DNA of 64,000 bases. Source: an uncultured Bacilli bacterium (lineage in GTDB: Bacteria > Bacillota_I > Bacilli_A > RF39 > UBA660). The translations under genes were made by a program, and so were the position numbers. The DNA is taken from NCBI GenBank assembly GCA_934167875.1, contig CAKPMC010000004.1:21214-85213 (forward strand), written 5' to 3'. Below, in pieces: positions 26,904 through 50,835 of this stretch (within the stretch, counting starts at the first letter, position 1; every line of letters starts with the position of its first letter). The notes beneath the pieces were generated by a model, which worked only from the letters and a program-made list of their open reading frames with translations, had not been told where the DNA came from and searched no databases.

Positions 26904-26910
26904 GTGTCTT

Positions 26911-27684: not shown

Positions 27685-27741
27685 AAAATATTTAAAAAAC
27701 ATTTGAACTATGATATACTTTATTAAGATATAGAGGTGTTT

Positions 27742-30654: not shown

Positions 30655-30664
30655 GAGGTAAACC

Positions 30665-31099: not shown

Positions 31100-31115
31100 G
31101 AAAGGGGAAAATAAT

Positions 31116-31976: not shown

Positions 31977-32003
31977 TAAAAAGAATAAAAAGGGGAAAAT
32001 ATT

Positions 32004-33521: not shown

Positions 33522-33532
33522 GGAGGGTAACT

Positions 33533-34426: not shown

Positions 34427-35211
34427 TGGAAGTAATTATTTGTGGAGCTCTTATCTTAGGAGTATTACTTTATAATAAAACAGTAGATGGTAAAAAGTTT
34501 GTTCAAGATAATCAAGATATTTTCTACTTACTAAAAGAAAGTGATTATGACTTCTTAGTAGCTGCCAAATATGGTGAAAAAGTTGATCCTAATGTTTTAT
34601 TTAATAAAAGATTAAAAATGGCTTTTATTACTATGGTAATATTTCTATTTATATTTTTAACAGAATTATCAGTTCTTAATGTTGTTTTATCATTATTTGT
34701 TGGTTATATTGTTTTTAAATCTAATTATACATCTTTAAAAAAGTATTATAAGAAACATTTACATGATATAGATGTAATGTTGCCATACTATTTAAAGGGT
34801 CTAGAAATTTTAATTCAACATTATACTGTACCAGTAGCATTAGCTAAATCAATAGATGATGCACCAGAAATATTTAAACCTGGACTAAGAAATCTAATTG
34901 CTAAAATTGATGCAGGTGATTATAGTATTGATCCATATATGGAATTTGCTAATGAGTATCCTGTTAGAGATTCAATGCGTATGATGAGATTACTATACCG
35001 TTTAGGTTTAGGTAAACAAGAAGATAAACAAGAAAGATTATTAATGTTTTCAAGAACAGTTTCTAACTTACAAGCTAAGGCAAGAGAAACCAAGTATAAA
35101 GAAAGATTAAATCATATGGAAAGTCAAACTATGATAATGCTAGTAGCAACAGGTGCTGGTGTTATGGTACTTATCCTAATATCTATGCTTTATATGTTCC
35201 AGAATATTTAG
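34426..35211 (+). CDS. tadC: Tad pilus assembly inner-membrane protein TadC-like (T2SS-F family)
   Basis: 261 aa with the same topology as the preceding gene. Its start abuts the tadB stop. Confidence 0.6.
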   Translation: MEVIICGALILGVLLYNKTVDGKKFVQDNQDIFYLLKESDYDFLVAAKYGEKVDPNVLFNKRLKMAFITMVIFLFIFLTELSVLNVVLSLFVGYIVFKSNYTSLKKYYKKHLHDIDVMLPYYLKGLEILIQHYTVPVALAKSIDDAPEIFKPGLRNLIAKIDAGDYSIDPYMEFANEYPVRDSMRMMRLLYRLGLGKQEDKQERLLMFSRTVSNLQAKARETKYKERLNHMESQTMIMLVATGAGVMVLILISMLYMFQNI

Positions 35212-35218
35212 TATAATA

Positions 35219-35246
35219 AAAGTCAGAGTAATAGCTCTGACTTTTG
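35219..35246 (+). terminator. rho-independent terminator after tadC-like gene
   Basis: agtcagag-taatag-ctctgact followed by TTTT. Confidence 0.6.
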
Positions 35247-35276
35247 GATATAATTATGCATTAAAAGGAGTAGTAC

Positions 35277-36590
35277 ATGAACAAAAAAAATATATTGATA
35301 TATTTAACTTTTGTAATACTATTAATCATTGTCTCATGTTTATCTCAAACGGAATTAGATGGAGTTTGGGGTTATGGTTTTAGTTACAACATAGCTAGTG
35401 GACTTATTCCATATAGAGACTTTAATATGGTAGTAGGTCCATTATATAGTATTATTTTTTCAATATTTATAAAAATATTTGGGAATTATTTTTTAGTATT
35501 TTCTATACAAAGTGCACTTATATATGGATTAATTATGTTACCAATATATAAAAAGATAGGTTGGAAATCCATTTATATAATATTACTACTGGGATGTTGT
35601 TTAACAACTTTTGGTTATAATACTTTTTGTGCCATGTTAGTATTACTAATAATGTGTATAGAAGATAGTGATTATAAGTATAAAACAATGCTAACAGGAA
35701 TATTAATTGGTACAATAATAATGACAAAACACAATATTGGTATTTGCTTATTATTAGTATTTTTATTAATTAATTATAAAAAGAAACTACAAGTTTTAAG
35801 TGTTTTAATTCCAATAATTCCAACAATTATTTATTTAATTGTCAACAATACCTTTTATTCATATATTGATTTTTGTTATCTTGGACTTGGTAAATTTTTA
35901 GATAATTTATATATAGATATTTTCACAATTCCTATAATAATTTATGTCATATATTTTATAATAAAAAATTATAGAATAAATAAAGATAAAATAATTCTTT
36001 ATTTATTAGCATTTCAAGTAATGGTATTTCCAATATTTGATCAGGGGCATATTTTACCAGCATTGATTCCATTTACATACTATATATTTGCTAAAAACGA
36101 ATATCCAAAAGTAAAATTTTATTTAAGCTATTTTATTATAATAGGAATATCAGTTAATACTATTTCCAACTTAGTATTAACAAAAGTATATATGAATAAT
36201 GATTATTTATTTTTACAAAGAGTAAAAACTGAAACCATAACATATCTTGATAATTACTCAAAATACCTAGAGAAAAACAAAGATAAAAAAATATATTTAT
36301 TACTAGATAATGCATATTTAATAAAAATATATCGCAATGAAAATCCAACTTTTTATGATTTAATAAATATGGGAAATTTAGGTAGTAATGAGCAAAAGTA
36401 TATAGACAATATGTCAAAGGAATGTGCTAATAAGAAGTGTATGTTTATTTTAGATAAAAGATACTTTGTAAAAAAATTATATGGTGAACAAAGATCAGAA
36501 ACATTTAAAAAATATACCATAAATAATGCTAATTATTTAGAAACATTACCATCTGGAGATAGAGTATATGTTAATTATGTAAATGAATAA
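35277..36590 (+). CDS. polytopic membrane protein (about 11 TM) with C-terminal soluble domain; possible GT-C-like glycosyltransferase within the Tad cluster
   Basis: 437 aa. The first extracytoplasmic loop has ELDGVWGYGFSYN...PYRDF. Extremely AT-rich. Confidence 0.3.
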   Translation: MNKKNILIYLTFVILLIIVSCLSQTELDGVWGYGFSYNIASGLIPYRDFNMVVGPLYSIIFSIFIKIFGNYFLVFSIQSALIYGLIMLPIYKKIGWKSIYIILLLGCCLTTFGYNTFCAMLVLLIMCIEDSDYKYKTMLTGILIGTIIMTKHNIGICLLLVFLLINYKKKLQVLSVLIPIIPTIIYLIVNNTFYSYIDFCYLGLGKFLDNLYIDIFTIPIIIYVIYFIIKNYRINKDKIILYLLAFQVMVFPIFDQGHILPALIPFTYYIFAKNEYPKVKFYLSYFIIIGISVNTISNLVLTKVYMNNDYLFLQRVKTETITYLDNYSKYLEKNKDKKIYLLLDNAYLIKIYRNENPTFYDLINMGNLGSNEQKYIDNMSKECANKKCMFILDKRYFVKKLYGEQRSETFKKYTINNANYLETLPSGDRVYVNYVNE

Positions 36591-36672
36591 TATAAAAAAA
36601 ATTAAAAAATATAGTAAAGTTTAAAAAATATGATATAATAAAAATGTATATATAATAAAGGAGGAGTTATTA

Positions 36673-36858
36673 ATGAAAGAAGCAACTGGAGAATTAAATA
36701 TGACAGTAGTTACTATTATAGCTATAGGTGCAGTAATTGCATTCTTCTGGTTCATGTGGCCACAAATAAGAAATACTATTCAAGGAACTTGGAATGGTAT
36801 AGATTCAGGAAAAGATTGCATTAAAAATCCAGATAGTTGTAATACAAAAGCTGAATAA
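36673..36858 (+). CDS. Flp-type pilin candidate (61 aa, single TM, C-terminal Cys pair)
   Basis: MKEATGELNMTVVTIIAIGAVIAFFWFMW... is a short polar leader ending in Gly, followed by a hydrophobic helix. Strong AAGGAGGAG RBS. Confidence 0.4.
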   Translation: MKEATGELNMTVVTIIAIGAVIAFFWFMWPQIRNTIQGTWNGIDSGKDCIKNPDSCNTKAE

Positions 36859-36893
36859 TATAAAGATTTAATTGTTAGAAAAGCGGTGATAGT

Positions 36894-37415
36894 GTGAAAG
36901 ATGCTATAAGTGGTGCATTGACACTACAAATAATTTTAATATTTATGATTATTATTAATTGTTACTTAGCTTTTAGTGTTAATTACACTAAAGCTTTTCG
37001 TATTAAGAATGAAATACGTAACATTATTGAAAAGAACGAAGGATTAACCTGTTCAGCAGTAAATCAAATAAATGATTTAATGTTGAAGGTTAATTATGGC
37101 GTTCAAAGCGGTGAAAGAAAATGCCCTGAAGATTATGAAACAGCAGCACTAAATAATGGATTATTCTGTTATAAATACCAAAAAGTAGATGTAACAGGTA
37201 CATCAAATCAAGGTTCAACATATAAAGGAGCTTATTATACGGTACTAACATTTGTTGATGTAGATATACCAATATTTAATAAAATATTTCCTGAAATAGC
37301 TCTTTTAAATGAAACTTTCACAAGTAAAGGTGAAACATCATTGATTTACTCTTCAGGAGAAATTGGTAGTGGATTACCAGATGATTGTTCAAAAAGTTCC
37401 ACTGCTAGCGAATAG
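36894..37415 (+). CDS. TadE-like pseudopilin candidate
   Basis: MKDAISG/ALTLQIILIFMIIINCYLAFSV N-terminus of prepilin-like topology, followed by a 140-aa hydrophilic domain. GTG start. Confidence 0.4.
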   Translation: MKDAISGALTLQIILIFMIIINCYLAFSVNYTKAFRIKNEIRNIIEKNEGLTCSAVNQINDLMLKVNYGVQSGERKCPEDYETAALNNGLFCYKYQKVDVTGTSNQGSTYKGAYYTVLTFVDVDIPIFNKIFPEIALLNETFTSKGETSLIYSSGEIGSGLPDDCSKSSTASE

Positions 37416-37429
37416 AAAAAGGTGAAATT

Positions 37430-38404
37430 ATGAATGTAATTATATCTAATGAAAGACAAGCAGAATTAGCAAACCTAGATATTGAAATTATAAAATCTAT
37501 TCATGGCGTATTTGAAGTAGATGAGTTAATTCAAATGTTTTCTAATTTCTTCTTTGGAAGAATGATACTTGATTTAACTGCATTAAAAGACTATAAAGAT
37601 GTACGTAATTTACAGAAATTATCAATGTCATTAGATGTTGAAAAAATTATAGTTTTACTTCCAGATACACCAGAGTGTTTAGCACCTAGATTCCTATCTA
37701 GATTAATTTCAATGGGAATCTATAACTTCACCACTAATATAGATGGCGTTAATTATCTATTAACTAATCCAAATACATATCGTGATGTTGCTCATCTACA
37801 TCAAATTGATGAACAACCAGAACCACAAGTTATAAACAATGTTGGAGTAGCTATGGGTGGTAACAGTAGTACAATTTTATCTACTGGTGGAAATTATATT
37901 TTAGGAATTAAAAATGTAACCGAACATTCAGGTGCTACTATGTTAACATATATGCTTAAAAATGTTATTAAGGATATGGGAAGAAGTTCATTAGCAATAG
38001 AAGTTGATAAACGAGATTTTGTTTACTTCAATGATAAAGATATGATATCTATAGATAATGCTAATCTAGCTAATGAAGTTTTAAAGCATAGAGATACCAA
38101 TGTAATTATAATTGATTTAAATAAAGAAGGCAGTGAAGATGTATGTAATGAAGTACTATACTTAATTGAACCTTCTACTATTAAATTAAATAAATTAATG
38201 AGAAGAGATCGTAAAGCTTTTGAAAAATTAGCAGGCAAAAAAGTAATCCTTTCTCAAAGTATCTTATCAGATAGTGATATCAAAGAATTTGAATATGAAG
38301 CAAATATAAAAGTTTTCTTTGTTATGCCACCATTAGATGAGAGAAGCAAAAATACCGAAGTTTTACAAGATTTACTAGCTAGACTTGGAATAAGCAACTA
38401 CTAG
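37430..38404 (+). CDS. TadZ/CpaE-like protein: N-terminal receiver-like domain plus ParA/MinD-fold domain with degenerate Walker A
   Basis: The N-terminus has a CheY-like alternating pattern (KIIVLLPDTPE). The GVAMGGNSST segment replaces the KGGxGKT P-loop, and VIIIDLNKEGS is a Walker-B-like hhhhD segment. Confidence 0.4.
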   Translation: MNVIISNERQAELANLDIEIIKSIHGVFEVDELIQMFSNFFFGRMILDLTALKDYKDVRNLQKLSMSLDVEKIIVLLPDTPECLAPRFLSRLISMGIYNFTTNIDGVNYLLTNPNTYRDVAHLHQIDEQPEPQVINNVGVAMGGNSSTILSTGGNYILGIKNVTEHSGATMLTYMLKNVIKDMGRSSLAIEVDKRDFVYFNDKDMISIDNANLANEVLKHRDTNVIIIDLNKEGSEDVCNEVLYLIEPSTIKLNKLMRRDRKAFEKLAGKKVILSQSILSDSDIKEFEYEANIKVFFVMPPLDERSKNTEVLQDLLARLGISNY

Positions 38405-38407
38405 TAA

Positions 38408-38436
38408 TTGTCAAAAAATGTAAATAATTTTATAAT
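38408..38436 (+). promoter_or_regulatory. sigma-A promoter (TTGTCA - 17 nt - TATAAT), with a second TTGACT-17-TATTAT just downstream
   Basis: Near-consensus hexamers immediately upstream of the VirB2-like gene. Confidence 0.5.
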
Positions 38437-38496
38437 ATATTGACTAATAAAGCCAATTATTATATTATTTAATTAGTATTAAGGAGGGAATTTGTT

Positions 38497-38826
38497 ATGA
38501 ATTTAGTACAAATAATGTCTTGTCCTAGTGACTTAGTTCCTATTTTTAAATTTTTAAAGAATGGAATTTATCCTATTATCCAAATAGGTATCCCAATCAT
38601 TTTAATTATTATGGGAAGTATTGATTTAGGAAAAGCTGTAATGTCTAGTGATGATAAAGAAATCAAAGGAGCAACAAGCAAGTTAATCAAACGTGCAATT
38701 GCTGCTGTAGCTGTATTCTTTGTTACAACAATCGTTTCATTATTAATGAATTTGTTTGCTTCATCTGGTTCTGATATTGATACAGGTTCAACAAACTGGG
38801 CAGATTGCTGGACAAAATTAGATTAA
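38497..38826 (+). CDS. small two-TM protein, VirB2/TrbC-pilin-like T4SS subunit candidate
   Basis: 109 aa with two hydrophobic helices separated by a charged loop (GSIDLGKAVMSSDDKEIKGATSKLIKR). Flanked by a strong promoter and terminator. Paralogous to the C-terminus of the next gene. Confidence 0.45.
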   Translation: MNLVQIMSCPSDLVPIFKFLKNGIYPIIQIGIPIILIIMGSIDLGKAVMSSDDKEIKGATSKLIKRAIAAVAVFFVTTIVSLLMNLFASSGSDIDTGSTNWADCWTKLD

Positions 38827-38842
38827 TAAATTGAATTAAAAT

Positions 38843-38875
38843 AATAGTAAAATCATTTTACTATTATTTTTTTTA
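38843..38875 (+). terminator. rho-independent terminator after the VirB2-like gene
   Basis: aatagtaaaa-tca-ttttactatt followed by ATTTTTTTT. Confidence 0.7.
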
Positions 38876-38921
38876 TGATATAATTACCTTGGTATATTAT
38901 AATTTCAAGGAGTGTAACTTT

Positions 38922-40259
38922 ATGAAAAAACTTAACAAAATCATATTTTATTCAATATTTTTAACTTTTTTAATAATCACAAATGGTGATAACGTATATG
39001 CAGATGTAGCTTGGCCAGGAGTAGATAGCAGCCAAATACCAAGTAATTATAAAGGCATGGAGTATTGTGTTTATACAACCCAGAATGTTTATTTAGATAC
39101 TTCTGGATTTGAAAAACTTAGTAAATGGTATTCAAATAAAAGTTACATTTTAATTCATGATAGTAAAAATAATGAAATTAAATTTTTAGACAGAAAAGGT
39201 ACAGTAGTAACTACAGCAAGTGAATATGCCTGGGCAACTGGTGGAATTAATCAAAATATATATTTTTCACAAAATTTATATAACTATTTAGTACCAAATG
39301 GGGAATTACAGTGTAAGAAACTATATTTTTATGAACGAAAAAAAGGTTCAAATTTATTTTCAAATTCAGGTTCACTCGAAATATTAACAGATGTCAGTGA
39401 ATATTTTGGAGCAAATTATAATAGTGAGGATTATGGAGTTCAAATTCTACAGCAAACTGGTGTTGAGGGAACAAGATACGGTGAAAATTGGTGTAAAGTT
39501 AATTATGAAAAATTAAAAGCTATTACTGAACCATATTATAGTCAAATTGATTCAATTAATAATGCATACTATCAAATGTCAGAACAAAAAGAATATCAAA
39601 TTGGTGATGCCAAAAAAGGAAAAGAGTATTTAGCATCTGCTAAAGCTCTAAATGAAAATGCACGAAATGCTATTGCTGATTTGCACTTAAATGATCAAAA
39701 TAGTGATGTTAATGTTTCTAATTGTGATGCCACTTTTAATAATGAATATCAAAAAATAATTCAAAACTTAGAGTCTGCTTTGAAACAATTTAGTACATAC
39801 CAAAGAACTATAAATAGTAAACTAACCTCAGCTAAAAATAGCGGTAAGATTACGGAAGAGGAATATAAAAAAGAAAAAGAAGAAATGGATGGTCTAAAAA
39901 CAGAAACAGATACAGCATTAGAAGAGTGGGAAGAATATCGAAAAAATATTAATTTTGGTAAAAAGATAGAAGATGCTGGTTGCGAAGGGTTGCTTGGAAA
40001 AGATCTATTAGATGACATTTCTCAAGTATTAACGTGGGTAAGAATTGCAGTACCTATTTTAGTTATCTTACTTGGAAGTACTGATTTCGCAAGAGCAGTA
40101 TTATCAGATGATCAGCAAGAGTTAAAAAAGGCAACTAGCAGATTTGCTAAACGTTGTATTATTGCTGTAGCTATTTTCTTCATACCATCTATAATAATGT
40201 ATTTATTAAGTTTCATAGATAAAATATATGATGTCTCTTGTGACATAAGGTTATGGTGA
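38922..40259 (+). CDS. secreted coiled-coil protein fused to a C-terminal VirB2-like two-TM domain
   Basis: Signal peptide, a central E/K-rich coiled coil, and a C-terminus LGSTDFARAVLSDDQQELKKATSRFAKRCIIAVAIFFIPSII that is paralogous to the 109-aa protein (MGSIDLGKAVMSSDDKEIKGATSKLIKRAIAAVAVFFVTTIV). Start placed at MKKLNK after an AAGGAG RBS. Confidence 0.5.
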   Translation: MKKLNKIIFYSIFLTFLIITNGDNVYADVAWPGVDSSQIPSNYKGMEYCVYTTQNVYLDTSGFEKLSKWYSNKSYILIHDSKNNEIKFLDRKGTVVTTASEYAWATGGINQNIYFSQNLYNYLVPNGELQCKKLYFYERKKGSNLFSNSGSLEILTDVSEYFGANYNSEDYGVQILQQTGVEGTRYGENWCKVNYEKLKAITEPYYSQIDSINNAYYQMSEQKEYQIGDAKKGKEYLASAKALNENARNAIADLHLNDQNSDVNVSNCDATFNNEYQKIIQNLESALKQFSTYQRTINSKLTSAKNSGKITEEEYKKEKEEMDGLKTETDTALEEWEEYRKNINFGKKIEDAGCEGLLGKDLLDDISQVLTWVRIAVPILVILLGSTDFARAVLSDDQQELKKATSRFAKRCIIAVAIFFIPSIIMYLLSFIDKIYDVSCDIRLW

Positions 40260-42379
40260 TGTTAATGAACAATTTAATTTTTACAATGGCTAGTCGTGGT
40301 TGGGCATGGAATATTATCCGTTCACTATTTGGATGGTTAGATTCAGTTGCATACTTTTTATTTTCATCAGTAATGCAATTAATTTTTGATATTATATCTG
40401 TCACATCTGATCCAGCCTTTAATAATTTTTACAATGGTATACACTCAAGAATATATGCAATAATTGCCATATATATGTTATTTAAAATAACAATTTCATT
40501 GTTAACCTATTTAGTTAATCCTGATTCAATGAATGACAAAGAACGTGGCGTTGGTAAAATGGCAACTAGAGTTATAGTAGCGCTAGTAATGCTAATTGCC
40601 TTTCCTAATGCATTTTCATTTATTAATAAAATTCAACCTCATATTATAGAAGCAATTCCACGTGTTATTCTCGGAACAGAAACTACATCTTCTAGTGATA
40701 GCAGTGGTAGTGATTTAAGCAGTCAAATGGGGGATGTTGGAAAACAAATAGCTTTTGATACCTACAATGGTGTTTGGTTTAACGATAATTGTGCAGACAG
40801 TAATAATACAGATGCAGGCAAGTGTTTTGCTTATACAGATGATAGTGGAAAAGCTACAGTAGCAGTTGCTGTTGACCATATCAATGATGCAGCTGATGGT
40901 GATTCAGGTCAGTATAGATACAATTATTATCCATTAGTTGGATTTGTCACAGCTTTAATCATGACTATTATTTTACTTGGATATTGTGTTGATATATCCA
41001 TTCGTGTATTCAAATTAATAATTTTACAAATTATAGCGCCAATTCCAATCATTAGCTATATAGATCCAAAATCATCAAAAGATGGTGCATTTTCTAAGTG
41101 GTTAAAGATGGTTGGAAGTGTTTATTTAGATGTATTTATAAAACTAGCAATTATTTACTTTATTTTATTAGTTATATCTGAGTTAATAACAAGTGGTACG
41201 ATTGCTAATTTGACATTAAGTTTGTTTGGCAAACAAGGTACTTTCCGTTCAGGAATGGTAATGGTAGCTCTAGTTATGGGATTGTTCTTTTTTGCAAAAG
41301 AAGCACCAAAATTTATTGCCGATGCACTTGGAGTTAAAATGAGTGAAAATAGTCACTTATTTGGTGGACTTAGTAAGATAGCAGCCGCAGCAACTTTAGG
41401 GGCAGGTGCTATTGGTTCAGGAATTGCATCAGGTAGATCAAGCTTTATGGCTGATGAAGCTAATGGAAAAAATCATAATGTTGGACGTATATTTAAAAAT
41501 GTTGGTGCAGGCCTAGTTGGTGCAGCATCAGGACTTGGAACAGGTGCAAACGCAGCCTTGAATGCCAAAGATCATCATGCTAAAGCAGCTATGGATGCTA
41601 TGATAAAGCGTAACGCTAAAGTAAGTGCAATAGGAGCAGAGGGTGGTACTACTCTTGGAGGAGCAGCATCACTTATGGAAACTATGTTTACAGGTCAGAC
41701 ACCAATCGAGAGAATGGAAGCTGATTGGAAAAAACAAGAAGAAGCAATTAAATACGATAAGCAAAAAAATGCTGAACGTAAAGCCATCATGGATAGGGCA
41801 TCATCTAAAGGCTTGGAAAGTTATAAAACATCAGGAAATATAAGTAATTTTCAAGGAGCAAGTGGAAAAATATATAATTTGGACAATGCAAATGCCGCAA
41901 GTTATAATTCAGTTCTTGAAGCTGCAATGTCTGGTAATGGTATTTATCATACTTATTCTAATGGATATGGTGCCACATTTACACAGGAACAATATAATGC
42001 ACTAAGTGATGATCAAAAAGCTAATTGGACAGAAAGTGGTTCATTCTTTGATTTCAATGGTCAGTCTATTGATATAAGAGATGCAAAAATGTTGCAACAT
42101 GAAATTAACGATGCCAATATAGCTGATTATGCTGAACAAGCTTTAGCAGGTACAATAGATGATGCTGTTATTACTGGAGCAGACGAAAGATTTGCAGCTG
42201 CTAATAATGGTGTCGGTGTAGAAAGAACCTTCGGTGGTGCTGATGGTCTAAAAGCTACATTTGGAAGAGTTAATAATAACATTACTAGTCGTGAATTAGA
42301 AATTGCTAATCAGAAAAATGATCAAAATGTTAAGCGCCAACAAGCTAACAATAAAGTATTTAATAAGAATGGCAATTAG
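40253..42379 (+). CDS. VirB6/TrbL-like polytopic T4SS membrane protein with Gly/Ala-rich C-terminal domain (Tn916 Orf15 / TcpH-like)
   Basis: At least 7 TM helices in the first 370 aa, then a 330-aa hydrophilic G/A/N-rich domain. Positioned before the VirB3/VirB4 genes. Confidence 0.55.
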   Translation: MVMLMNNLIFTMASRGWAWNIIRSLFGWLDSVAYFLFSSVMQLIFDIISVTSDPAFNNFYNGIHSRIYAIIAIYMLFKITISLLTYLVNPDSMNDKERGVGKMATRVIVALVMLIAFPNAFSFINKIQPHIIEAIPRVILGTETTSSSDSSGSDLSSQMGDVGKQIAFDTYNGVWFNDNCADSNNTDAGKCFAYTDDSGKATVAVAVDHINDAADGDSGQYRYNYYPLVGFVTALIMTIILLGYCVDISIRVFKLIILQIIAPIPIISYIDPKSSKDGAFSKWLKMVGSVYLDVFIKLAIIYFILLVISELITSGTIANLTLSLFGKQGTFRSGMVMVALVMGLFFFAKEAPKFIADALGVKMSENSHLFGGLSKIAAAATLGAGAIGSGIASGRSSFMADEANGKNHNVGRIFKNVGAGLVGAASGLGTGANAALNAKDHHAKAAMDAMIKRNAKVSAIGAEGGTTLGGAASLMETMFTGQTPIERMEADWKKQEEAIKYDKQKNAERKAIMDRASSKGLESYKTSGNISNFQGASGKIYNLDNANAASYNSVLEAAMSGNGIYHTYSNGYGATFTQEQYNALSDDQKANWTESGSFFDFNGQSIDIRDAKMLQHEINDANIADYAEQALAGTIDDAVITGADERFAAANNGVGVERTFGGADGLKATFGRVNNNITSRELEIANQKNDQNVKRQQANNKVFNKNGN

Positions 42380-42399
42380 AAAGGAATGTGTGATATAAA

Positions 42400-42723
42400 G
42401 TGAATGATAATTATTTGATTCCTGCTAATACGAAAAGAGGACAATTAATATTAGGATTGTTTACTCCAATTGACTTAATAATCTTTTTAGGTGGATTGGC
42501 AGTAACCTTCCTTCTAATATCGATTTTACCAATGGATATTACTTGGGTAGCAATACTTTCAGTAGCACCGGGTATAATTTGTTCATTATTAGTTGCTCCA
42601 GTTGCCTACTACCATAACGTTAGGCAGCTAATTATTGAAATATATAAGTATTTTTCAGGAAGAAATCGTTTTGTATGGAAGGGTTGGTGTTTTCTAGATG
42701 AATCAGAAGATAAATCAAAGTAA
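42400..42723 (+). CDS. VirB3-like / PrgI-family small T4SS membrane protein
   Basis: 107 aa with two TM helices (LILGLFTPIDLIIFLGGLAVTFLLISIL...VAILSVAPGIICSLLVAPVAYY). Immediately upstream of, and overlapping, the VirB4 gene. Confidence 0.55.
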   Translation: MNDNYLIPANTKRGQLILGLFTPIDLIIFLGGLAVTFLLISILPMDITWVAILSVAPGIICSLLVAPVAYYHNVRQLIIEIYKYFSGRNRFVWKGWCFLDESEDKSK

Positions 42724-43249
42724 ATGGACTGAAGATTGGATAAATATTCAATCAATTACCAATGGTATGATTGTTTTACCAAATCAAGAAAAAGTATCAG
42801 GAGTAAAAATAACTCCACGTAATATCTTTATCCTAGATGAAGAATCACAAACAAGTGTATTAATAGCACTTAAGAATTTTTATAATACAATAGATTATGA
42901 GTTTTGGTTAGTTGTTGCCGATAGACCAGTTGATATATCAGTATATCTATCACAATTGCAACTTCAATACCAAAATCAAACTAATCAACAAGTAAGAAAA
43001 TTAATTAGTCAAGATATTCAAAAAGGTAATTACTTCATGAATAATAATGTTGTTGATACCGAATATTTCATCTTATTCAAAGAAAAAAATGTTGAACTTA
43101 TGCAAAAGAAGATTCGTTCTCTTATAAGCGGACTTTCAACAGCAGGTCTAATAGCTAGTCAAACTAGTAATGAAGATCTAAGAATAATACTAGATAATTT
43201 CTTAAACGGTGGTTCAACCACTACATTTGGGACGGTGATGCCTCTATGA
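42698..43249 (+). CDS. VirB4-family T4SS ATPase, N-terminal fragment (split gene)
   Basis: Typical N-terminal region of Gram-positive VirB4 proteins (IVLPNQEKVSGVKITPRNIFILDEESQ). Ends at a TGA that overlaps the ATG of the next ORF. Confidence 0.55.
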   Translation: MNQKINQSKWTEDWINIQSITNGMIVLPNQEKVSGVKITPRNIFILDEESQTSVLIALKNFYNTIDYEFWLVVADRPVDISVYLSQLQLQYQNQTNQQVRKLISQDIQKGNYFMNNNVVDTEYFILFKEKNVELMQKKIRSLISGLSTAGLIASQTSNEDLRIILDNFLNGGSTTTFGTVMPL

Positions 43250-45033
43250 GTATTTTCAAATCTGAAGTTGCTCCAAAAGGACTACAATTTAATCCAGGAG
43301 ATTTCGTTGTTAGCGGTAAATATGCTACTATCTTAACAGTAGTATCTTACCCTAAATACATTTATCCAGGATATTTATCATCACTAACAAGTATGTCTGG
43401 TATAAAGGTAGTTGCAAAACATATACCAGTACCTTTTTCAACAATGTCTAAAATGTTAAATAAACAAATTGCTGACTTAAAAACTAGATATCAAGATGAA
43501 AGAGATAATACTATTCGTGAAAGAATTAGACTTGATTATGAATCATTAGAACAATTCATAACTATGTTAGCTGGAAGTCAAGCTAAAATATTTGATTATC
43601 AAATGCATATCATGATTACAGCTGATAGCAGAGAAGATCTTGAATTAAAGAAAATAAATGTTAAAAACTACTTAGATGCTATGGAAATGAAAGGTGTTTC
43701 ACTTCGATTTGAACAGGAAAAGGTTCTTAAATCAATAGTACCAATTTTTCCTAAACAAGATGTAGAAAATCGTATTGGTACACCAATACCATCACCAACC
43801 ATTGCAGCAATGTATCCGTTTATCTTTGATAGTATAAAAGATCCAGGATTATCTACTTTATTAGGTGTTGATTTTTCTGGAGGTGTTATCTTATTTAATC
43901 AATTCTTATATCAAATTAAAAAAGAAAACAACCGTAATAATGCTAACCTTATAATTTTAGGTACTTCAGGATCAGGTAAATCAACAGCAGCTAAACTAAT
44001 GTTAAGAAGCCATATTCGTAATGGCTACCAGATAGTAGCAATTGATCCAGAAAATGAATTATATGAAATGGCTACAAACTTTGGTGGTGAATCAATCGAC
44101 CTTGGTAAAGGTGGGGAATATGGAATGGTTAACCCACTTCAAATCGTAATTGATGCTGATGAAGATGAAATTAAACAAGGATTAGGTTATACCGTTTTAA
44201 CTAGAACACTTCAATTCCTAAAAGGATTTATGAGATATTATGATCCATCTATTGAAGAAGATGTCCTAACTATGTTTAGTGAAGTAGTTCAAGATACATA
44301 TCGTCGTTTTGGTATCGATTTCAATAGTGATTTCTATAATTATCAAGCAAGTGATTATCCAACATTCTCAGATGTTTATGCAACTATTAAAGGCAGATTA
44401 TTATCTATGACAGATCAAACTCAGGAACGTACTATTATGGAAAAACTTGAATTAAAAGTAAGACCACTAACTCAAGAGTTAAAATATTATTTTGATGGTC
44501 ATACTACGGTTAATCCTAATACTGATTTTATTGTCTTTAATATAAAAGAATTAATGAATTCTGCTGATAATATTCGTAATGCTTTATTCTTTAACATTTT
44601 AAAATATGCTTGGGGCTTATGTCTTGATAAAAGCATAAATACATGTTTAATGGTAGATGAAGCCCACGTATTATTATCAGGAAGTAATGCTCTAGGAGCT
44701 GAATTCTTATCTCAAGTTCAACGTCGTGCTCGTAAATATAATACAGGTTCAATTATCATTACTCAACAACCTAGTGATTTCGCAGCACCTAGCGTTATTA
44801 TGCATGGTAAAGCTATATTCGATAATGCATCTTATTATTTAGTAATGGGCTTAAAGAAACAAGCAGTTGATGACTTAGGCAAATTAATTGATTTAAATGA
44901 AAATGAAAAAGAAAGTATAAAACGTTATTCACAAGGGGAAGCATTATTTGTTTGTGGAAATCGTCGTATGCGTATTAACGTTATTTTAACTCCAGAAGAA
45001 CTAGAATCATTTGGTTCAGGTGGAGGTTTATAG
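43246..45033 (+). CDS. VirB4-family T4SS ATPase, C-terminal ATPase part (Tn916 Orf16 / TcpF / PrgJ-like)
   Basis: Walker A LGTSGSGKST and Walker B LMVDEAHVLL. Combined with the upstream ORF the length is about 778 aa, typical of VirB4. The frame stays open upstream of the ATG. Confidence 0.8.
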   Translation: MSIFKSEVAPKGLQFNPGDFVVSGKYATILTVVSYPKYIYPGYLSSLTSMSGIKVVAKHIPVPFSTMSKMLNKQIADLKTRYQDERDNTIRERIRLDYESLEQFITMLAGSQAKIFDYQMHIMITADSREDLELKKINVKNYLDAMEMKGVSLRFEQEKVLKSIVPIFPKQDVENRIGTPIPSPTIAAMYPFIFDSIKDPGLSTLLGVDFSGGVILFNQFLYQIKKENNRNNANLIILGTSGSGKSTAAKLMLRSHIRNGYQIVAIDPENELYEMATNFGGESIDLGKGGEYGMVNPLQIVIDADEDEIKQGLGYTVLTRTLQFLKGFMRYYDPSIEEDVLTMFSEVVQDTYRRFGIDFNSDFYNYQASDYPTFSDVYATIKGRLLSMTDQTQERTIMEKLELKVRPLTQELKYYFDGHTTVNPNTDFIVFNIKELMNSADNIRNALFFNILKYAWGLCLDKSINTCLMVDEAHVLLSGSNALGAEFLSQVQRRARKYNTGSIIITQQPSDFAAPSVIMHGKAIFDNASYYLVMGLKKQAVDDLGKLIDLNENEKESIKRYSQGEALFVCGNRRMRINVILTPEELESFGSGGGL

Positions 45034-45059
45034 AAAAGTAGTAAAGGCAGGTGAGCTGT

Positions 45060-47804
45060 ATGGATGAAGAACAAGAAAATTTAGAAAAGCAAAAGCAAGC
45101 TGATAATAATCAAAAGACAGCTCACGTTGCTGGTAAAGCAGCAGCAACTTACTATGGAGGAGCTGCTGGTGGTCAACTATATGATGCAGCAAGTAAAACT
45201 AAAGTAGGGCAAGCAATAGAAAAGAATGCAGCTAAAAATATCAGTAACAATCCTGCTTTAAATAGAGCCAGTCAAAAGTTAAATGATGTTGGCGCTATGG
45301 ATGCCGCTGACAAGGGAATTGATTTAGCTGGTGGCAGTATGGGCAAGGGGGCACCTAATCCATCAGGTGGTGGCATGAACAAGCCAGGACTATCACCATC
45401 TACAGGTAGTGAAGGTGGTAAACCAGGTTTAGATCAAGGTAATAAAACTTCTAATTCTGGAGAGTCATCAAATTCAAATACAAATACCTCAGGTGGTAAA
45501 AAGAAATTAAACAATCTTTTCGGAAGTGGCGAAGGTAATGCCGATAGCTCAGATAGTTCAACTGAAAATGAAAGTTATGCTAGCAAAATATTTAAATTTA
45601 TAAAAAGTCATCCTAAACCATTCATCTCTATGGGTGGTGGTTTTCTACTAATATTAGTACTAATCATAGCAGTTATTTCGATAGCTGATTCGGTAGTGGG
45701 TGGCGTTATTGATTTTTTCAACAACGTAAAAGACACACTAATAGGTTTCTTCACAAAAGATGAAGAAGAATTAATGAATGATTATTATGATACATTAAAA
45801 AATACTCAAATAGATATCAATGAAGATTATAGTGTTTGTATTGATGTAAATTTAATAACAGCTGCTCTTACAGTTAATGTAGCTGCTGATGATTTTGTTA
45901 ACGATGGTGAACAGATTGATCCATCTGGAGACGGCGACACTACAACTAATGAAGATGGTACTCAATCTACTAAACCATATAAAAAAATGACAAAGCAAGT
46001 AAAACTTTTAGCATATATGCAACTTATGACTAGTAAATATGGTTTAGATAAAAGTTATAAAGAAACTAATGGTAGTTATTGTAGTAGTGACAATAAAACG
46101 CCAGTGTTAGTAGATAGTAGCAAAGTAAATGATTATGAAGGTGAAAAAACACCTTGGGTAAGTATAGATAGTTCAAATTTTGATTTAATATCTAGACATG
46201 ATTTGGGTGAAAATCTTAACTTTAAATTATTAAAAACAACGTCAGAAAAAAATTATGCCTATTATTTATATTATCCTAAATATAATTCTGATGGTAGTTG
46301 TGATGATTCATATGCTAAAGGTGCATTACCAGAAGAGAAAAAAGAGTTAAGTATAGGTGATTTAAAGACAAAAGAAGATTCTGTTTTCTACTGGAATTTA
46401 ATTAACTCATTTATACCAGATTATTATAAAGACTATTTACCAGATAAAGATGCTGCTAATTATGATGAAGCTGTAAAGAAAATAGCTGATGATATATATC
46501 TATTATATGCTGAAACAGGACCTAGCCAAACATGTGCTAGTAGTTATCAAGGACCATCTAGTCTATGTCCAAATGGTATAACCGTAGTTGGTAAAGATGG
46601 TAATGCTAGTACAATCGATTTTGAAGAATACATAGCTGGAGTTGTTTCAAATGAAGCTTATAGTAGTGAAGGAATGGAAGCACTAAAGGCACAAGCAGTA
46701 GCAGCTCGTACCTATGCTATTAATTTAACTAATTATTGTGAAAAAACTATTTCTAATAGTACCAATGCTCAAACATTTACCAAAGATATTAATGATAGAG
46801 CACGAGAAGCAGCAACCTCAACCGCTGGTGAAATACTAGTGGATTCAAATGGTAAAATCTTTGGAGCTCAGTATGATTCTTTCTGTTATGATGATAAAGA
46901 CTGTCCAGATGCTAAGAAAAATGCTGATGGAACATATTCAGTTACTTATACCAAAGTTCCTAATGGAGAAAAACATGTAATTACTTTAAGTGATCCTAAA
47001 CAATATGGAAGAATAACGCATGGTAAAGGACATGCTCATGGTATGAGTCAGTTATTATCATATCAAATGGCAAAAGAAGGAAAAACTTATCAAGAAATAT
47101 TATCTTATTTCTATTCAGATGGTGTAACAATTAATTTAGTATTATCACCAACTACTACTGAAGGTGGTACGATTATTAATAAACCAATTGAACACTATTT
47201 AAGTGCCGTTGGAACCAACATTAATAATATGAATCAAACTATCTATAGCCAAGTAAGAAAAGCAGGAGTTGGAACTAGAGAAGGTGTTGTGGCAGCTGCC
47301 GTAACCTTAATTAATAACTTCTATTCACAAACAGGATATCTTCTTCCATATGAGTTATATCCTAGTGGTAAATATTCAGGATATGGAATGGATCCAAGTT
47401 GGGGTACTAACACAGGAAGATCCGATTATCCTTCAAATGGTTTAGATTGTAGTGGCTTTGTTTCATGGGCTATTCATAATGGTGGCTTCAAGTACGAAGT
47501 AAAAAGTGCTAAAGGATGGGGCGATTCCAGCGCAAGAAGACCTTGGACTAAAGGAATGACTGATACCTCAGCTAAACCAGGTGATTTAATCTATAACGCA
47601 CCTCAAAGTGCTAATGGTACTACAGGTCATATTAGAATGATAGTTGAAGTTACCAAAGAAGGTTATGTTGTAGCTGAAGCAAGTTCTAGAAAAAATGGTG
47701 TTAGAATCAAAACCATTTCCTTTACAAGTACAGGTAATTATTATTTAGTTAATATGGATAACTATTATGCCAGTGCTACAAAAGTAACAGATTACCCACA
47801 ATAG
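45060..47804 (+). CDS. T4SS-associated cell-wall hydrolase: N-terminal G/S-rich region, TM, SpoIID/LytB-like domain and C-terminal NlpC/P60 peptidase (CwlT/TcpG/Orf14 analogue)
   Basis: SpoIID-like EYIAGVVSNEAYSSEGMEALKAQAVAARTYAIN and NlpC/P60 Cys-His region GLDCSGFVSWAIHNGG...TGHIRMIV. One TM near residue 200. Confidence 0.7.
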   Translation: MDEEQENLEKQKQADNNQKTAHVAGKAAATYYGGAAGGQLYDAASKTKVGQAIEKNAAKNISNNPALNRASQKLNDVGAMDAADKGIDLAGGSMGKGAPNPSGGGMNKPGLSPSTGSEGGKPGLDQGNKTSNSGESSNSNTNTSGGKKKLNNLFGSGEGNADSSDSSTENESYASKIFKFIKSHPKPFISMGGGFLLILVLIIAVISIADSVVGGVIDFFNNVKDTLIGFFTKDEEELMNDYYDTLKNTQIDINEDYSVCIDVNLITAALTVNVAADDFVNDGEQIDPSGDGDTTTNEDGTQSTKPYKKMTKQVKLLAYMQLMTSKYGLDKSYKETNGSYCSSDNKTPVLVDSSKVNDYEGEKTPWVSIDSSNFDLISRHDLGENLNFKLLKTTSEKNYAYYLYYPKYNSDGSCDDSYAKGALPEEKKELSIGDLKTKEDSVFYWNLINSFIPDYYKDYLPDKDAANYDEAVKKIADDIYLLYAETGPSQTCASSYQGPSSLCPNGITVVGKDGNASTIDFEEYIAGVVSNEAYSSEGMEALKAQAVAARTYAINLTNYCEKTISNSTNAQTFTKDINDRAREAATSTAGEILVDSNGKIFGAQYDSFCYDDKDCPDAKKNADGTYSVTYTKVPNGEKHVITLSDPKQYGRITHGKGHAHGMSQLLSYQMAKEGKTYQEILSYFYSDGVTINLVLSPTTTEGGTIINKPIEHYLSAVGTNINNMNQTIYSQVRKAGVGTREGVVAAAVTLINNFYSQTGYLLPYELYPSGKYSGYGMDPSWGTNTGRSDYPSNGLDCSGFVSWAIHNGGFKYEVKSAKGWGDSSARRPWTKGMTDTSAKPGDLIYNAPQSANGTTGHIRMIVEVTKEGYVVAEASSRKNGVRIKTISFTSTGNYYLVNMDNYYASATKVTDYPQ

Positions 47805-47813
47805 GAGGATATA

Positions 47814-48551
47814 ATGAAAAAGAAAATATTTATATTAACATTTTTACTCCTTTGTGTAACAGGTTGTAATGCTAATTACGATATAGAAATATATAATAAT
47901 CAAGTAAAAGAGGATATGCAATTTGTTGAATTAGATTCATCAGTTTGGGATAGTGAGGTACAATATGGCCTTAGTTACCGTAACTTATTAGAAGCTTCAA
48001 TTGATTATCCATATCCTGCTTTTAATGATGCTGTAGTAGATGAAGATGATACCATTAAATTAGAAGGTGTTGAATATTATGATAATACTTTAATATCAGA
48101 TAATCTTAAATTAGGACAAAGATTAAAATATAATAAATTTACTTTAAATGATTTCAGTAAGTCATCAATAGTTAGAAAATGTTATCAATATTTTACTGTT
48201 AAAGAAGAGGAAGATAATATAATAATTTCTACATCACTAGAAAACCTATGCTTTAGTGAATATCCAATCTTAGACAGAATAACTATAAATCTAAAAACAA
48301 ATCATAAAGTAGTTAGTAGTAATGCAACCAAGGTAAAAGGATATCACTATACATGGGATATTACTAGAGATAATAGTAGTGATAGTGCTATTTCAATTAC
48401 TCTTAAAAAAGATGATTATATTTTCAATTATGAAAATGAATTCATTAAAAAAATTATTTACATTGTTCTAATAGTTGGTATAATACTAAGTGTTAGTAGT
48501 ATATGTTACTTTTACTTTAAAAATAAGAATAAACGATTAAATGAAATCTAG
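47814..48551 (+). CDS. lipoprotein with C-terminal TM anchor, unknown function
   Basis: Lipobox LLCVTGC. Hydrophobic helix IIYIVLIVGIILSVSSICYF near the C-terminus. Confidence 0.45.
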   Translation: MKKKIFILTFLLLCVTGCNANYDIEIYNNQVKEDMQFVELDSSVWDSEVQYGLSYRNLLEASIDYPYPAFNDAVVDEDDTIKLEGVEYYDNTLISDNLKLGQRLKYNKFTLNDFSKSSIVRKCYQYFTVKEEEDNIIISTSLENLCFSEYPILDRITINLKTNHKVVSSNATKVKGYHYTWDITRDNSSDSAISITLKKDDYIFNYENEFIKKIIYIVLIVGIILSVSSICYFYFKNKNKRLNEI

Positions 48552-48561
48552 GAGGTAGTAT

Positions 48562-50835
48562 ATGAAATTAAAGTTTAAAGCAGATGCAACTGATGTATTA
48601 ATATTTGTAATATTTGCTATATTTTTATTCTATATAGTTTGCTTAGGAGTACTTAATTTTCCTGAGTTAGCACTAAATGGACATTTTTATGGACTAAATC
48701 CATTTCCTGCTTTAGCACCTGACAGGATTGTTACAACTTTAGTTTTTTATCTTATCTTCCTAGCTGCTATTTTTGCATCTGTATCATCATATTTCTTTGA
48801 AAGAGAAAGTGGTTTTGGTTTCTCAACAGAAAAATCTTCAAAAGGTTACAGTCATTGGGCCAAAGAAAAAGAAATTAAAAGTGATAACGGTGTTGAAATG
48901 GTAAAACCAACAGCTGATAAGTCAGAATATGCTGGTATACCACTAATTATAAAAAAAGATGAAGTATGGGTAGATAACGGTGAGTATCACTCATTAGTAA
49001 TAGGAGCTACCGGATCAGGTAAAACTCAAACTGTTATTTTTCCTACTGTAGAAGTTTTAGCTAAGAAAAGAGAATCAATGATTATCACTGACCCTAAAGG
49101 TGAAATCTATGAAAAAACTTCAAATATGCTACGTGACAAAGGTTATGATGTCTTAGTACTTAACTTCCGTGATCCACAAAATGGTAGTGCTTGGAACCCA
49201 TTATCTCTTCCATATCGTATGTATAAATCAGGAAATCAAGATAAAGCTATTGAGTTATTAGATGACCTAGCTGCTAATATTCTTTATGAAGAAAAAAGTG
49301 GTAATGCTGATCCATTCTGGGAAAAAACATCAGCTGATTATTTTGCAGGACTTGCTCTTGGTATGTTTGAAGATACCACAGAAGATAAAGTAAATATTAA
49401 TAGTATTAGTTTAATGACAACTGTTGGTGAAGAAAAATTTGGCGGTTCTACATACATTAAAGAATATTTCAATACTAAAGATCCTAGTAGTCCAGCATAT
49501 ACAAATGCCAGTGGTACTATAATGGCACCTAGTGAAACTAAAGGAAGTATCATTTCTGTATTTAAACAAAAAATAAAATTATTTGCATCTCGTGAAAATT
49601 TATCAGAAATGTTAAGTCATAGTGATATAGATCTTGAAACTATTGGTGAAAAACCTACAGCCTTATTCATTATCATTCAAGATGAAAAGAAAACTTACCA
49701 TCCATTAGTTACAATTTTATTAAAACAATGTTATGAAACATTAATAGCTACAGCTCAAAAACATGGTGGAAAATTACCAGTTAGAACTAATTTCTTACTA
49801 GATGAGTTTGCTAATATGCCACCACTTAAGGATATAACTACAATGATTACAGCAGCCCGTAGCCGTCAAATTCGTTTTACAATGATAATTCAAAACTTTG
49901 CTCAATTAGATCAAGTGTATGGTAAAGAAAATGCAGAAACTATCAAAGGTAACTGTGGAAATATTATTTACTTAATAACAACCGAATTAAAAGCTCTAGA
50001 AGAAATCAGTAAAATGTGTGGTGAAGTAAAATCTAAGAAAGATGATAAAACAGCTTCAACACCACTTGTTACTATAAGTGATTTGCAACGTATGAAACAG
50101 TTTGAAGTAATTATTATGCGTATGCGTAAGAACCCTTTCAAAACTAAATTTGTTCCATATTATCAAATGGATTTTGGTAAAAAATATGCTAAAGCTGAAT
50201 ATCCAGAGCGTACTAAGGAAGAAGTTCATACTTTTGACTTAAGAGAATATGTAAAAGAAAAGAAAAAAGAAAAATTAATGCAAATGATGAATGATCCTCA
50301 ATCAGCTCCAATGGGTGGTATGCCAAACGGTATGCCTGGTGGTTTTGGAATGCCAAATATGAATTCATTCCCTCAAGGCGGTATGTTTGGACCTCGATCA
50401 ACACCTATGCCAGATAATAGACCAAATTCTATGAGTTCCAATAGTGAAATGGGAAATGGTGCTGGAATTAATGTAGATGATATTATTAAGAAAATTGATG
50501 CTAAAATCGCTGAAATTGAAAAAGAGGAACAACAGAAAAAACAACAGAATAATATTACTGAAGAGCCAAAATCAACAATTGAACCTAAATTAGAAGTCAA
50601 GGAAGAAAAAGTCCCTGATACCACTCCTAAAGAAAAATTAACAATTGATGATCTATTAAAACCATCTTCAAATCAAGAAATTATTCCAAAAGAAGAAAAT
50701 TTAAAAGAAGACAAAAAGTTAGAGGAAATGGTACCAGTTAATGAACCTAAACCAATAATTCATGAAGAAAAAATACCACCTAAAGAAGATAATATTAGTG
50801 ATGATCAATTCTTTGATGATTTCTTTGATGATTAA
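48562..50835 (+). CDS. type IV coupling protein (VirD4/TraG family) with long disordered Met/Gly/Pro- and Glu/Lys/Pro-rich C-terminal tail
   Basis: Two N-terminal TMs, Walker A VIGATGSGKTQ and Walker B FLLDEFANMPP. The C-terminal tail contains PMGGMPNGMPGGFGMPNMNSFPQGGMFGP repeats. Confidence 0.8.
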   Translation: MKLKFKADATDVLIFVIFAIFLFYIVCLGVLNFPELALNGHFYGLNPFPALAPDRIVTTLVFYLIFLAAIFASVSSYFFERESGFGFSTEKSSKGYSHWAKEKEIKSDNGVEMVKPTADKSEYAGIPLIIKKDEVWVDNGEYHSLVIGATGSGKTQTVIFPTVEVLAKKRESMIITDPKGEIYEKTSNMLRDKGYDVLVLNFRDPQNGSAWNPLSLPYRMYKSGNQDKAIELLDDLAANILYEEKSGNADPFWEKTSADYFAGLALGMFEDTTEDKVNINSISLMTTVGEEKFGGSTYIKEYFNTKDPSSPAYTNASGTIMAPSETKGSIISVFKQKIKLFASRENLSEMLSHSDIDLETIGEKPTALFIIIQDEKKTYHPLVTILLKQCYETLIATAQKHGGKLPVRTNFLLDEFANMPPLKDITTMITAARSRQIRFTMIIQNFAQLDQVYGKENAETIKGNCGNIIYLITTELKALEEISKMCGEVKSKKDDKTASTPLVTISDLQRMKQFEVIIMRMRKNPFKTKFVPYYQMDFGKKYAKAEYPERTKEEVHTFDLREYVKEKKKEKLMQMMNDPQSAPMGGMPNGMPGGFGMPNMNSFPQGGMFGPRSTPMPDNRPNSMSSNSEMGNGAGINVDDIIKKIDAKIAEIEKEEQQKKQQNNITEEPKSTIEPKLEVKEEKVPDTTPKEKLTIDDLLKPSSNQEIIPKEENLKEDKKLEEMVPVNEPKPIIHEEKIPPKEDNISDDQFFDDFFDD

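Follow-up and report, generated by a model that had tools for sequence, protein, structure and literature searches.

A VirB4 ATPase very probably encoded by two translationally coupled genes of the TrsD/TrsE type in uncultured Bacilli

Two-gene VirB4 proteins in described systems and in the window

In pSK41 and pGO1, a protein of about 200 residues, TrsD, is encoded directly before TrsE, a VirB4-like ATPase of about 600-670 residues that is devoid of the first part of the VirB4 N-terminal domain. The same layout is present in a 64,000-nucleotide (nt) stretch of DNA from an uncultured Bacilli bacterium (GTDB lineage RF39, UBA660; contig CAKPMC010000004.1, positions 21,214 to 85,213 of the forward strand), hereafter called the window. 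There, an open reading frame (ORF) for 183 amino acids (aa) of the VirB4 N-terminal domain (ORF1) is followed, in a different frame and with an ATGA overlap, by one for the remainder of this type IV secretion system (T4SS) ATPase (ORF2, 595 aa). We consider it highly probable that the pair is a genuine two-gene VirB4 with independent, coupled initiation of the second gene, that is, the same design as TrsD plus TrsE. In pSK41, trsD (25886-26569, 227 aa) precedes the gene of the TrsE ATPase (26584-28602, 672 aa), which matches positions 265-893 of the curated VirB4 model NF045975, as compared with 297-893 for ORF2. The two loci differ in that the pSK41 genes are 14 nt apart whereas those of the window overlap, and in that pSK41 is a conjugative plasmid with a relaxase, while the present locus is chromosomal and no relaxase was detected in it; furthermore, TrsD of pSK41 and the ORF1 family share only about 20% identity. 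TraD and TraE of pIP501 may be likened to ORF1 and ORF2 by family name (NF041427, 'TrsD/TraD family conjugative transfer protein'), and TraD of pIP501 is not discussed as a part of VirB4 in a 2025 nomenclature review (PMC12857230).

TrsD has been described as a remote homolog of the N-terminal part of VirB4 with no assigned function (PMC12102498). The statement of homology is that of this paper, which cites Guglielmini 2014, whose main text does not contain the name TrsD. In Patescibacteria (the candidate phyla radiation, CPR), TrsD is widespread beside virB4 and is the most abundant T4SS component, and it is listed as essential in Ca. Southlakia epibionticum (PMC12102498). As in the window, a stand-alone TrsD-like protein is found there beside virB4 in a chromosomal T4SS of the monoderm type, and these systems, mostly without a relaxase, are retained in reduced genomes (PMC12102498). 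The likeness is drawn from the published description of a different phylum, in which the gene of the T4SS coupling protein (T4CP) is usually not beside virB4 (PMC12102498). A VirB4 N-terminal domain distributed over two polypeptides has also been reported for archaeal CedB and CedD of the Ced DNA import system, which were proposed to form one VirB4 equivalent; CedB and CedD are, however, paralogs that both contain an ATPase domain, unlike the N-domain-only protein plus ATPase described here (PMC11868833). Our search of the literature on split VirB4 or RF39 T4SSs found no paper on this lineage.

With ORF2 as bait, a search of plasmids retrieved 1916 records, the best of which were Bacillus thuringiensis plasmids of the pBMB67 type, with a DUF87 ATPase aligned from ORF2 residue 1 onwards. 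Among plasmid proteins, this ATPase resembles ORF2 most closely (28% identity over residues 1-583, E 1e-72), and the gene order around it is like that of the window: a VirB6/TrbL-like protein, a PrgI-family protein (111 aa), a hypothetical protein (227 aa) and the ATPase (630 aa). In pBMB67, the N-domain and ATPase genes are 3 nt apart rather than overlapping, and, unlike here, a MobP3 relaxase is present and the T4CP gene lies upstream. Among curated models, that of the VirB4 of Mycoplasma integrative and conjugative elements (ICEs; Mbov_0397, NF045975) scored best with both ORFs, which are colinear with it. This VirB4 and two metagenomic proteins considered below, P0217 and P0244, each consist of one polypeptide, in which about 35-60 linker residues take the place of the stop and start codons of the window.

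The arrangement is already known as the TrsD/TrsE type, which the first-pass annotation of the window did not recognise, and it will not surprise T4SS specialists familiar with trs/tra operons; the present family is a very populous further case. Distinctive here are the ATGA-type coupling (65 of the 83 loci compared below) and the chromosomal setting without a relaxase. The features of the gene pair are as follows.

42698..43249, + strand: ORF1, stand-alone VirB4 N-terminal domain protein (TrsD/TraD-like, Pfam PF26593 'TraC-like'), 183 aa, ATG start, TGA stop
43229..43239, + strand: Shine-Dalgarno (SD)-like element GGGACGGTGAT for ORF2, in the last ORF1 codons (Gly-Thr-Val-Met)
43246..43249, + strand: ATGA overlap of the start codon of ORF2 (ATG) with the stop codon of ORF1 (TGA)
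43246..45033, + strand: ORF2, second part of the VirB4 N-terminal domain plus RecA-like ATPase domain (TrsE/TraE-like), 595 aa, ATG start
43960..43983, + strand: Walker A motif GTSGSGKS, ORF2 residues 239-246, residues 422-429 of the ORF1-ORF2 concatenate
44644..44661, + strand: Walker B motif CLMVDE, ORF2 residues 467-472, residues 650-655 of the concatenate

Relative to ORF1, the reading frame of ORF2 is -1 (+2); it is open for 16 codons before the ATG, with no other start codon among them. These coordinates, the ATGA overlap and the open codons are exactly as given in the first-pass annotation, which had proposed a recent -1 frameshift, a sequencing indel or a genuinely split VirB4 as explanations. 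Its assignment of the 183-aa ORF to the VirB4 N-terminal region also stands: residues 6-170 match positions 99-276 of NF045975 (E 4.9e-13; the Mbov_0397-family VirB4 model, 894 positions). ORF2 continues on the same model (residues 6-589, positions 297-893, E 1.9e-102) and also matches positions 187-731 of the CD1110-family VirB4 model, while its residues 201-593 match 4AG5, the solved crystal structure of a VirB4 C-terminal domain (E 5e-54); in Pfam, it is recognised by P-loop_TraG and AAA_10. Both Walker motifs are where the first-pass annotation expected them in a single VirB4, and Walker A at concatenate residue 422 suits a single-chain protein. The N-terminal and ATPase domains are nevertheless on separate polypeptides here, unlike in the single-chain VirB4 proteins of about 780-900 aa, and positions 1 to about 185-215 of every full-length VirB4 model are left uncovered by ORF2 alone. 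ORF2 is below the cutoffs of the curated VirB4 models, with 343.6 bits against 590 for NF045975, 169.2 against 325 for CD1110 and 69.4 against 643 for TIGR00929. Since ORF1 adds 47.7 bits against NF045975 and the sum with the 343.6 bits of ORF2 is still less than 590, the locus lies outside the NF045975 family proper.

The ATGA overlap is in itself unremarkable, because 11 of 50 adjacent gene pairs of the window overlap, by 1-35 nt; the pairing of two VirB4 halves is more than chance. As for stop codons, TGA ends just 3 of the 51 plus-strand ORFs of at least 90 aa in the window (TAA 28, TAG 20), and all three TGA codons lie within gene overlaps: ATGA at 43246, GTGATTGA at 5079 and ATGGTGA at 40253.

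Conservation of the split and the start signal of ORF2

The gene pair was compared in 83 loci, namely those of 80 species-representative genomes, two metagenome contigs (L009 and L010) and the window. The 80 genomic loci are the best of at least 579 confirmed matches of a profile scan with one genome per species, performed with an alignment of closer ORF1 relatives (A2) than those of the more divergent 21-sequence alignment A1. They come from 80 different assemblies labelled uncultured 'Bacilli', 'Tenericutes', 'Mycoplasma sp. CAG:877', 'Clostridium sp. CAG:451/710' or Candidatus Onthousia, and ORF1 identity across the 83 loci is 64-90%. In all 83 the two ORFs are in different frames and in none are they fused. 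The overlap spans 1-11 nt in every locus and comes in five designs: ATGA (65/83), TAATG (13/83) and overlaps of 7, 8 or 11 nt (together 5/83), with ORF2 in the other relative frame in four of these last five. As the junction varies in both type and frame across the loci, it must have been remodelled several times without loss of the two-gene state. Outside this set, at least 8000 ORF1 homologs were found in a collection of 5.8 billion proteins, and each of the top 120 (80-94% identity) is a stand-alone protein of 179-204 aa with PF26593. The first-pass annotation had named related loci with the same two-gene arrangement and a conserved start context as the mark of a genuinely split, translationally coupled VirB4, and that is what all 83 loci present.

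A single base would suffice to fuse or to split the two frames, and an artificial division of one ORF by a sequencing or assembly indel was therefore among the options of the first-pass annotation; nothing specific to this locus speaks for it. Contigs from 38 blocks of the assembly collection encode the exact 595-aa protein; at each of the 8 loci shown, the 183-aa gene lies before it and the junction sequence is identical to that of the window. The protein and its junction are thus reproduced on independently assembled contigs from many samples and projects, and the split is present in the 80 different assemblies as well. The probability of an indel artefact is, in our view, practically nil.

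A recent -1 frameshift that broke a single virB4 gene and left a pseudogene in a decaying T4SS would agree with the colinearity of the two ORFs with a single-chain VirB4 and with the failure to find a relaxase or integrase in the window. Such an event is hard to reconcile with a split that is shared by 83 of 83 loci with several junction types, with the intact state of the surrounding T4SS genes, and with the selection acting on both halves. For all pairs of the compared loci, the ratio of nonsynonymous to synonymous substitution rates (dN/dS, Nei-Gojobori method) had a median of 0.17 for ORF1 and 0.11 for ORF2 (0.26 and 0.14 for pairs with dS < 1) and reached maxima of 0.49 and 0.24, respectively. 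Neither half approaches the value of 1 and, because dN/dS is low, both are functional genes under purifying selection.

The position of the break was located by alignment with intact, fused relatives of metagenomic origin, P0217 (839 aa) and P0244 (868 aa), which are 27-28% identical to ORF1 and 30-31% to ORF2. Residues 9-151 of ORF1 align with residues 29-170 of P0217, and residues 5-586 of ORF2 with its residues 233-835. The stop and start codons of the window fall at a poorly conserved, variable linker, which has 35-60 additional residues in the fused proteins, and no conserved block is missing or duplicated at the break, as judged from both relatives and from the colinear match to NF045975. 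More distant stand-alone N-domain proteins of 180-270 aa (P0210, P0216, P0249, P0251, P0253, P0257 and P0261-P0266; 21-26% identity) stop at the same alignment position. Since four of them (P0216, P0249, P0265 and P0266) share motifs with the fused P0217 and P0244, both split and fused states exist among the relatives. The sole close read-through form is P0136 (40% identity to ORF1), in which the N-domain runs into ATPase-like sequence 'GYPNKVYPGYLSGL'. It could be counted in favour of a frameshift, but it is a singleton on an 891-nt metagenome contig from ENA and the protein nearest to it (73% identity) stands alone, with 187 aa; P0136 is either a real local re-fusion or the product of an assembly indel. 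Five other proteins that appeared as longer or 'fused' forms (P0122, P0125, P0131, P0166 and P0230) run into unrelated sequence, look chimeric or truncated, and are uninformative.

The start of ORF2 has a conserved signal of its own. A near-invariant ACGGTG(A/G)T occupies positions -14 to -7 from the ORF2 ATG in the 83 loci. At this SD-like element, the ORF1 threonine codon is ACG in 79/79 loci and the valine codon GTG in 83/83, as compared with frequencies of 9.2% of Thr codons and 7.4% of Val codons in the same genes; among 131 conserved degenerate codon columns of ORF1, only these two are free of synonymous variation. The 20 nt before ORF2 are predicted to pair with the 3' tail of 16S rRNA, taken as the generic Firmicutes sequence and not the host's own, with -13.8 kcal/mol, which ranks 4th among 51 gene starts of the window and is matched in strength by 0.1% of random 20-mers. 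The invariant synonymous sites and the duplex energy therefore indicate nucleotide-level selection for an SD site within ORF1. Judged by its sequence, the embedded site is a signature of independent, coupled initiation of ORF2, and the gene pair fits the layout of translational coupling, with a start codon overlapping or abutting the upstream stop codon and an SD site inside the upstream gene. Moreover, the length of the ORF2 N-terminus varies among loci directly after the ATG, as expected of a true N-terminus. A strong SD-like match (-13.9 kcal/mol) also precedes ORF1, within an upstream 107-aa ORF that is described below. A conserved SD site and ATG that serve ORF2 would not be expected of a broken gene and, together with the points given above, render a recent frameshift extremely improbable; the first-pass annotation had listed this option as a sign of decay, and the lack of any loss of conserved sequence at the break is at variance with it too.

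Programmed frameshifting or another form of recoding, yielding a fused 778-aa VirB4 beside or instead of two products, must also be considered, as the 16 codons ahead of the ORF2 ATG are open in its frame and the geometry of the overlap would permit a -1 shift. The first-pass annotation had noted the absence of a slippery heptamer, which extends to the 82 related loci: no X_XXY_YYZ sequence is found in any of the 83. The stretch that is open in both frames varies from 1 to 26 codons and does not exceed 2 codons in five loci, four loci have ORF2 in the other relative frame, and the length variation of ORF2 immediately after its ATG is that of a true N-terminus. We therefore regard recoding as very unlikely. 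An alternative genetic code, with TGA read as tryptophan, was rejected: read-through would add 29 residues in the ORF1 frame and leave the two frames unjoined, the ORF1 stop is TAA or TAG in 18/83 loci, and long ORFs tile the window under translation table 11.

These findings led us to favour a two-gene VirB4 in which ORF2 would be translated from its own start codon. The SD element GGGACGGTGAT in the last codons of ORF1 would recruit ribosomes, or retain them after termination of ORF1, and the ATGA overlap would couple translation of the two ORFs, which may keep the two halves near equimolar. Gene callers and finders of T4SSs or ICEs are prone to score a VirB4 of 183 plus 595 aa as a frameshifted pseudogene and the element as decayed. 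Such loci are better annotated as a TrsD-like plus TrsE-like pair, the split being the native state of a very large family of at least 8000 protein clusters.

Identity of the N-terminal protein and its likely partnership with ORF2

A structural model of ORF1 computed with AlphaFold2 (AF2) from a 47-sequence alignment had a predicted local distance difference test (pLDDT) score of 80.3. When this model was compared with the Protein Data Bank (PDB) using Foldseek, the 14 best matches were all chains of R388 TrwK/VirB4 (PDB 7O43, 7O41, 8RTD and 8RTB; best E 4.8e-4, probability 0.89-1.00); they are the sole significant PDB matches, those ranked below them being noise. R388 TrwK is one chain of about 820 aa, with 14-17% identity to ORF1, and a phmmer search of PDB sequences with ORF1 returned nothing meaningful. 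A search of plasmids with ORF1 by tblastn likewise gave no match at E 1e-3, and the plasmid TrsD-like proteins were reached with ORF2 as bait, followed by pairwise and profile comparison. The 227-aa protein of pBMB67 is 24% identical to ORF1 in BLASTP (pairwise E 3e-14) and itself matches the TrsD/TraD family model NF041427, as well as NF045975 (positions 97-259) and TIGR00929 (positions 3-136). In an hhalign comparison, the ORF1-family alignment A1 was matched with TrsD of pSK41 with a probability of 96.0% (E 4e-9, 168 columns). ORF1 thus represents, as a separate polypeptide, the first sub-domain of the VirB4 N-terminal domain. With split and fused forms among the relatives, the family is a clear comparative case for this sub-domain as a separable module, which could be of help in designing constructs for structural studies of Gram-positive T4SSs.

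A single VirB4-like protomer is probably rebuilt from the two products. In it, the ORF1 protein would dock non-covalently on ORF2 and connect the ATPase ring with the 107-aa PrgI/VirB3-like protein and with the VirB6-like membrane protein, in the manner of the N-terminal domain of the single-chain R388 protein. According to PMC9259494, as reported in PMC11868833, the R388 VirB4 N-terminal domain contacts VirB3 and VirB8.

Several points weigh against the two-gene, TrsD/TrsE-type interpretation. ORF1 does not match the curated TrsD model NF041427 (200-bit cutoff) at E <= 0.01, and the intermediates score below this cutoff as well (40.2 bits for the pBMB67 227-aa protein and 34.1 bits for P0251). 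As a consequence, the link to TrsD consists of profile-profile and intermediate-sequence evidence. The TM-scores of the ORF1 model to TrwK, normalised on query length, are modest (0.34-0.49), and the Foldseek output came without target residue ranges. The AF2 model of the concatenated 778-aa protein, built from a single sequence, had a pLDDT of 32.6 and was unusable, and we infer the binding of ORF1 to ORF2 from what is known of R388. To these must be added the generic 16S rRNA tail behind the SD energies.

It is also conceivable that ORF1 descends from a VirB4 N-domain and has become an independent accessory factor, e.g. a regulator or an adaptor to another partner, which is no longer a part of the ATPase. 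TrsD homologs of Gracilibacteria are not associated with virB4 (PMC12102498), and ORF1 evolves somewhat faster than ORF2 (0.17 versus 0.11 in median dN/dS). However, all 83 loci have ORF1 strictly adjacent to the ATPase gene and start-stop coupled with it, the fused relatives contain this domain in covalent linkage, and ORF2 on its own is without the first ~185-215 positions of the full-length VirB4 models. For these reasons, we judge an accessory role unlikely and retain the reconstitution of a VirB4-like protomer from two polypeptides as the preferred explanation.

Genomic context of the gene pair

The VirB4 halves are clustered with genes for a VirB6-like protein, a weak PrgI-like candidate, a hydrolase and a T4CP, and all these neighbouring T4SS genes are intact.

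40253..42379, + strand: VirB6/TrbL-like polytopic membrane protein, 708 aa; NCBIfam MMCAP2_0566, pLS20_p028 and Mbov_0396 transmembrane families, all below cutoff
42400..42723, + strand: candidate VirB3/PrgI-like small membrane protein, 107 aa; flanked by the VirB6-like gene and the VirB4 halves, the position of PrgI in pBMB67
45051..47804, + strand: cell-wall hydrolase, 917 aa, SpoIID plus CHAP/NlpC-P60, VirB1-like role by Pfam/NCBIfam domains
48562..50835, + strand: VirD4-type coupling protein (T4CP), 757 aa; Pfam T4SS-DNA_transf (E 2.9e-61), TraG-D_C and TrwB_AAD_bind

The 107-aa ORF has no Pfam or NCBIfam match and resembles the PrgI-family protein of pBMB67 only weakly in BLASTP (40% identity over 43 aa, pairwise E 0.001); relatives have an ORF of 100-124 aa in its place. 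It overlaps ORF1 by 26 nt and, given the ATGA that follows, the genes for the VirB3-like protein, the VirB4 N-domain and the VirB4 ATPase are chained by overlaps. At the position of the VirB6-like protein, the proteins of the relatives contain PF19597 (TrbL_4). The hydrolase after the VirB4 ATPase gene differs among loci: SpoIID plus CHAP/NlpC-P60 in the window, a glucosaminidase in L010 (7404-10082) and a peptidase M23 in the related loci L093 (12351-14126) and L095 (12345-14975), with the flanking T4SS genes unchanged.

Directly upstream of the T4SS genes is a Tad-like module composed of DUF5411, RcpC/CpaB, a T2SSE/CpaF ATPase, two proteins of TadB/C size and small pilin-sized ORFs, and together the two form a contiguous, co-oriented block (30665-50835). 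The surroundings look chromosomal, with GlmS, exopolysaccharide glycosyltransferases, SpaA/thioester pilin and sortases, BipA, LspA, RluD, RuvX and YceG. The same Tad and T4SS gene order is found in three relatives with an ORF1 identity of about 60% (L093, L094 and L095), which belong to divergent uncultured gut Bacilli/'Tenericutes' lineages and in which the block is flanked by rhodanese, VTT/DedA, RmuC and RNase R genes; in the window, too, the T4CP gene is followed by a rhodanese gene. Pfam and NCBIfam scans of essentially all ORFs of at least 90 aa detected neither a relaxase nor an integrase in the 64 kb. The first-pass annotation was thus right about the missing relaxase, though not in taking it for a sign of decay: because the relaxase-less block keeps its order in relatives of about 60% identity, the lack of this gene is a conserved property of an intact system. 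Tentatively, and with somewhat more reserve than confidence, we suggest that the T4SS may be a vertically inherited, domesticated chromosomal machine without a relaxase that forms one block with a Tad-like pilus module, which would parallel the TrsD-containing T4SSs of Patescibacteria, for which co-option has been proposed. If true, the role of such a system in gut bacteria with reduced genomes could be DNA uptake, DNA exchange or interaction between cells. Alternatively, the system may conjugate by means of a distant or unrecognised relaxase.

The G+C content is 0.29-0.34 in the Tad and T4SS block (28000-48000) and 0.21-0.26 in most of its flanks; the raised value could reflect an ancient foreign origin or coding constraints. 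On the upstream side, the interval 20333-22994 encodes a 705-aa SpaA-type pilin that has a thioester domain and, after it, a 186-aa sortase, and a second sortase-like ORF (26911-27684, 257 aa) stands just before a 972-aa unknown protein that precedes the Tad-like module, which indicates that a sortase-assembled pilus locus adjoins the block. Further downstream, at 59235-61136, a 633-aa protein has an N-terminal prepilin methylation motif (PF07963) and is unusually large for a type IV pilin-like protein. Between the rhodanese and BipA genes, an ORF of the PD-(D/E)XK 'transposase' family (52555-53379) is accompanied by VanZ, and the relatives have VTT and RmuC at this site, so that the local gene order is broken just downstream of the T4SS block.

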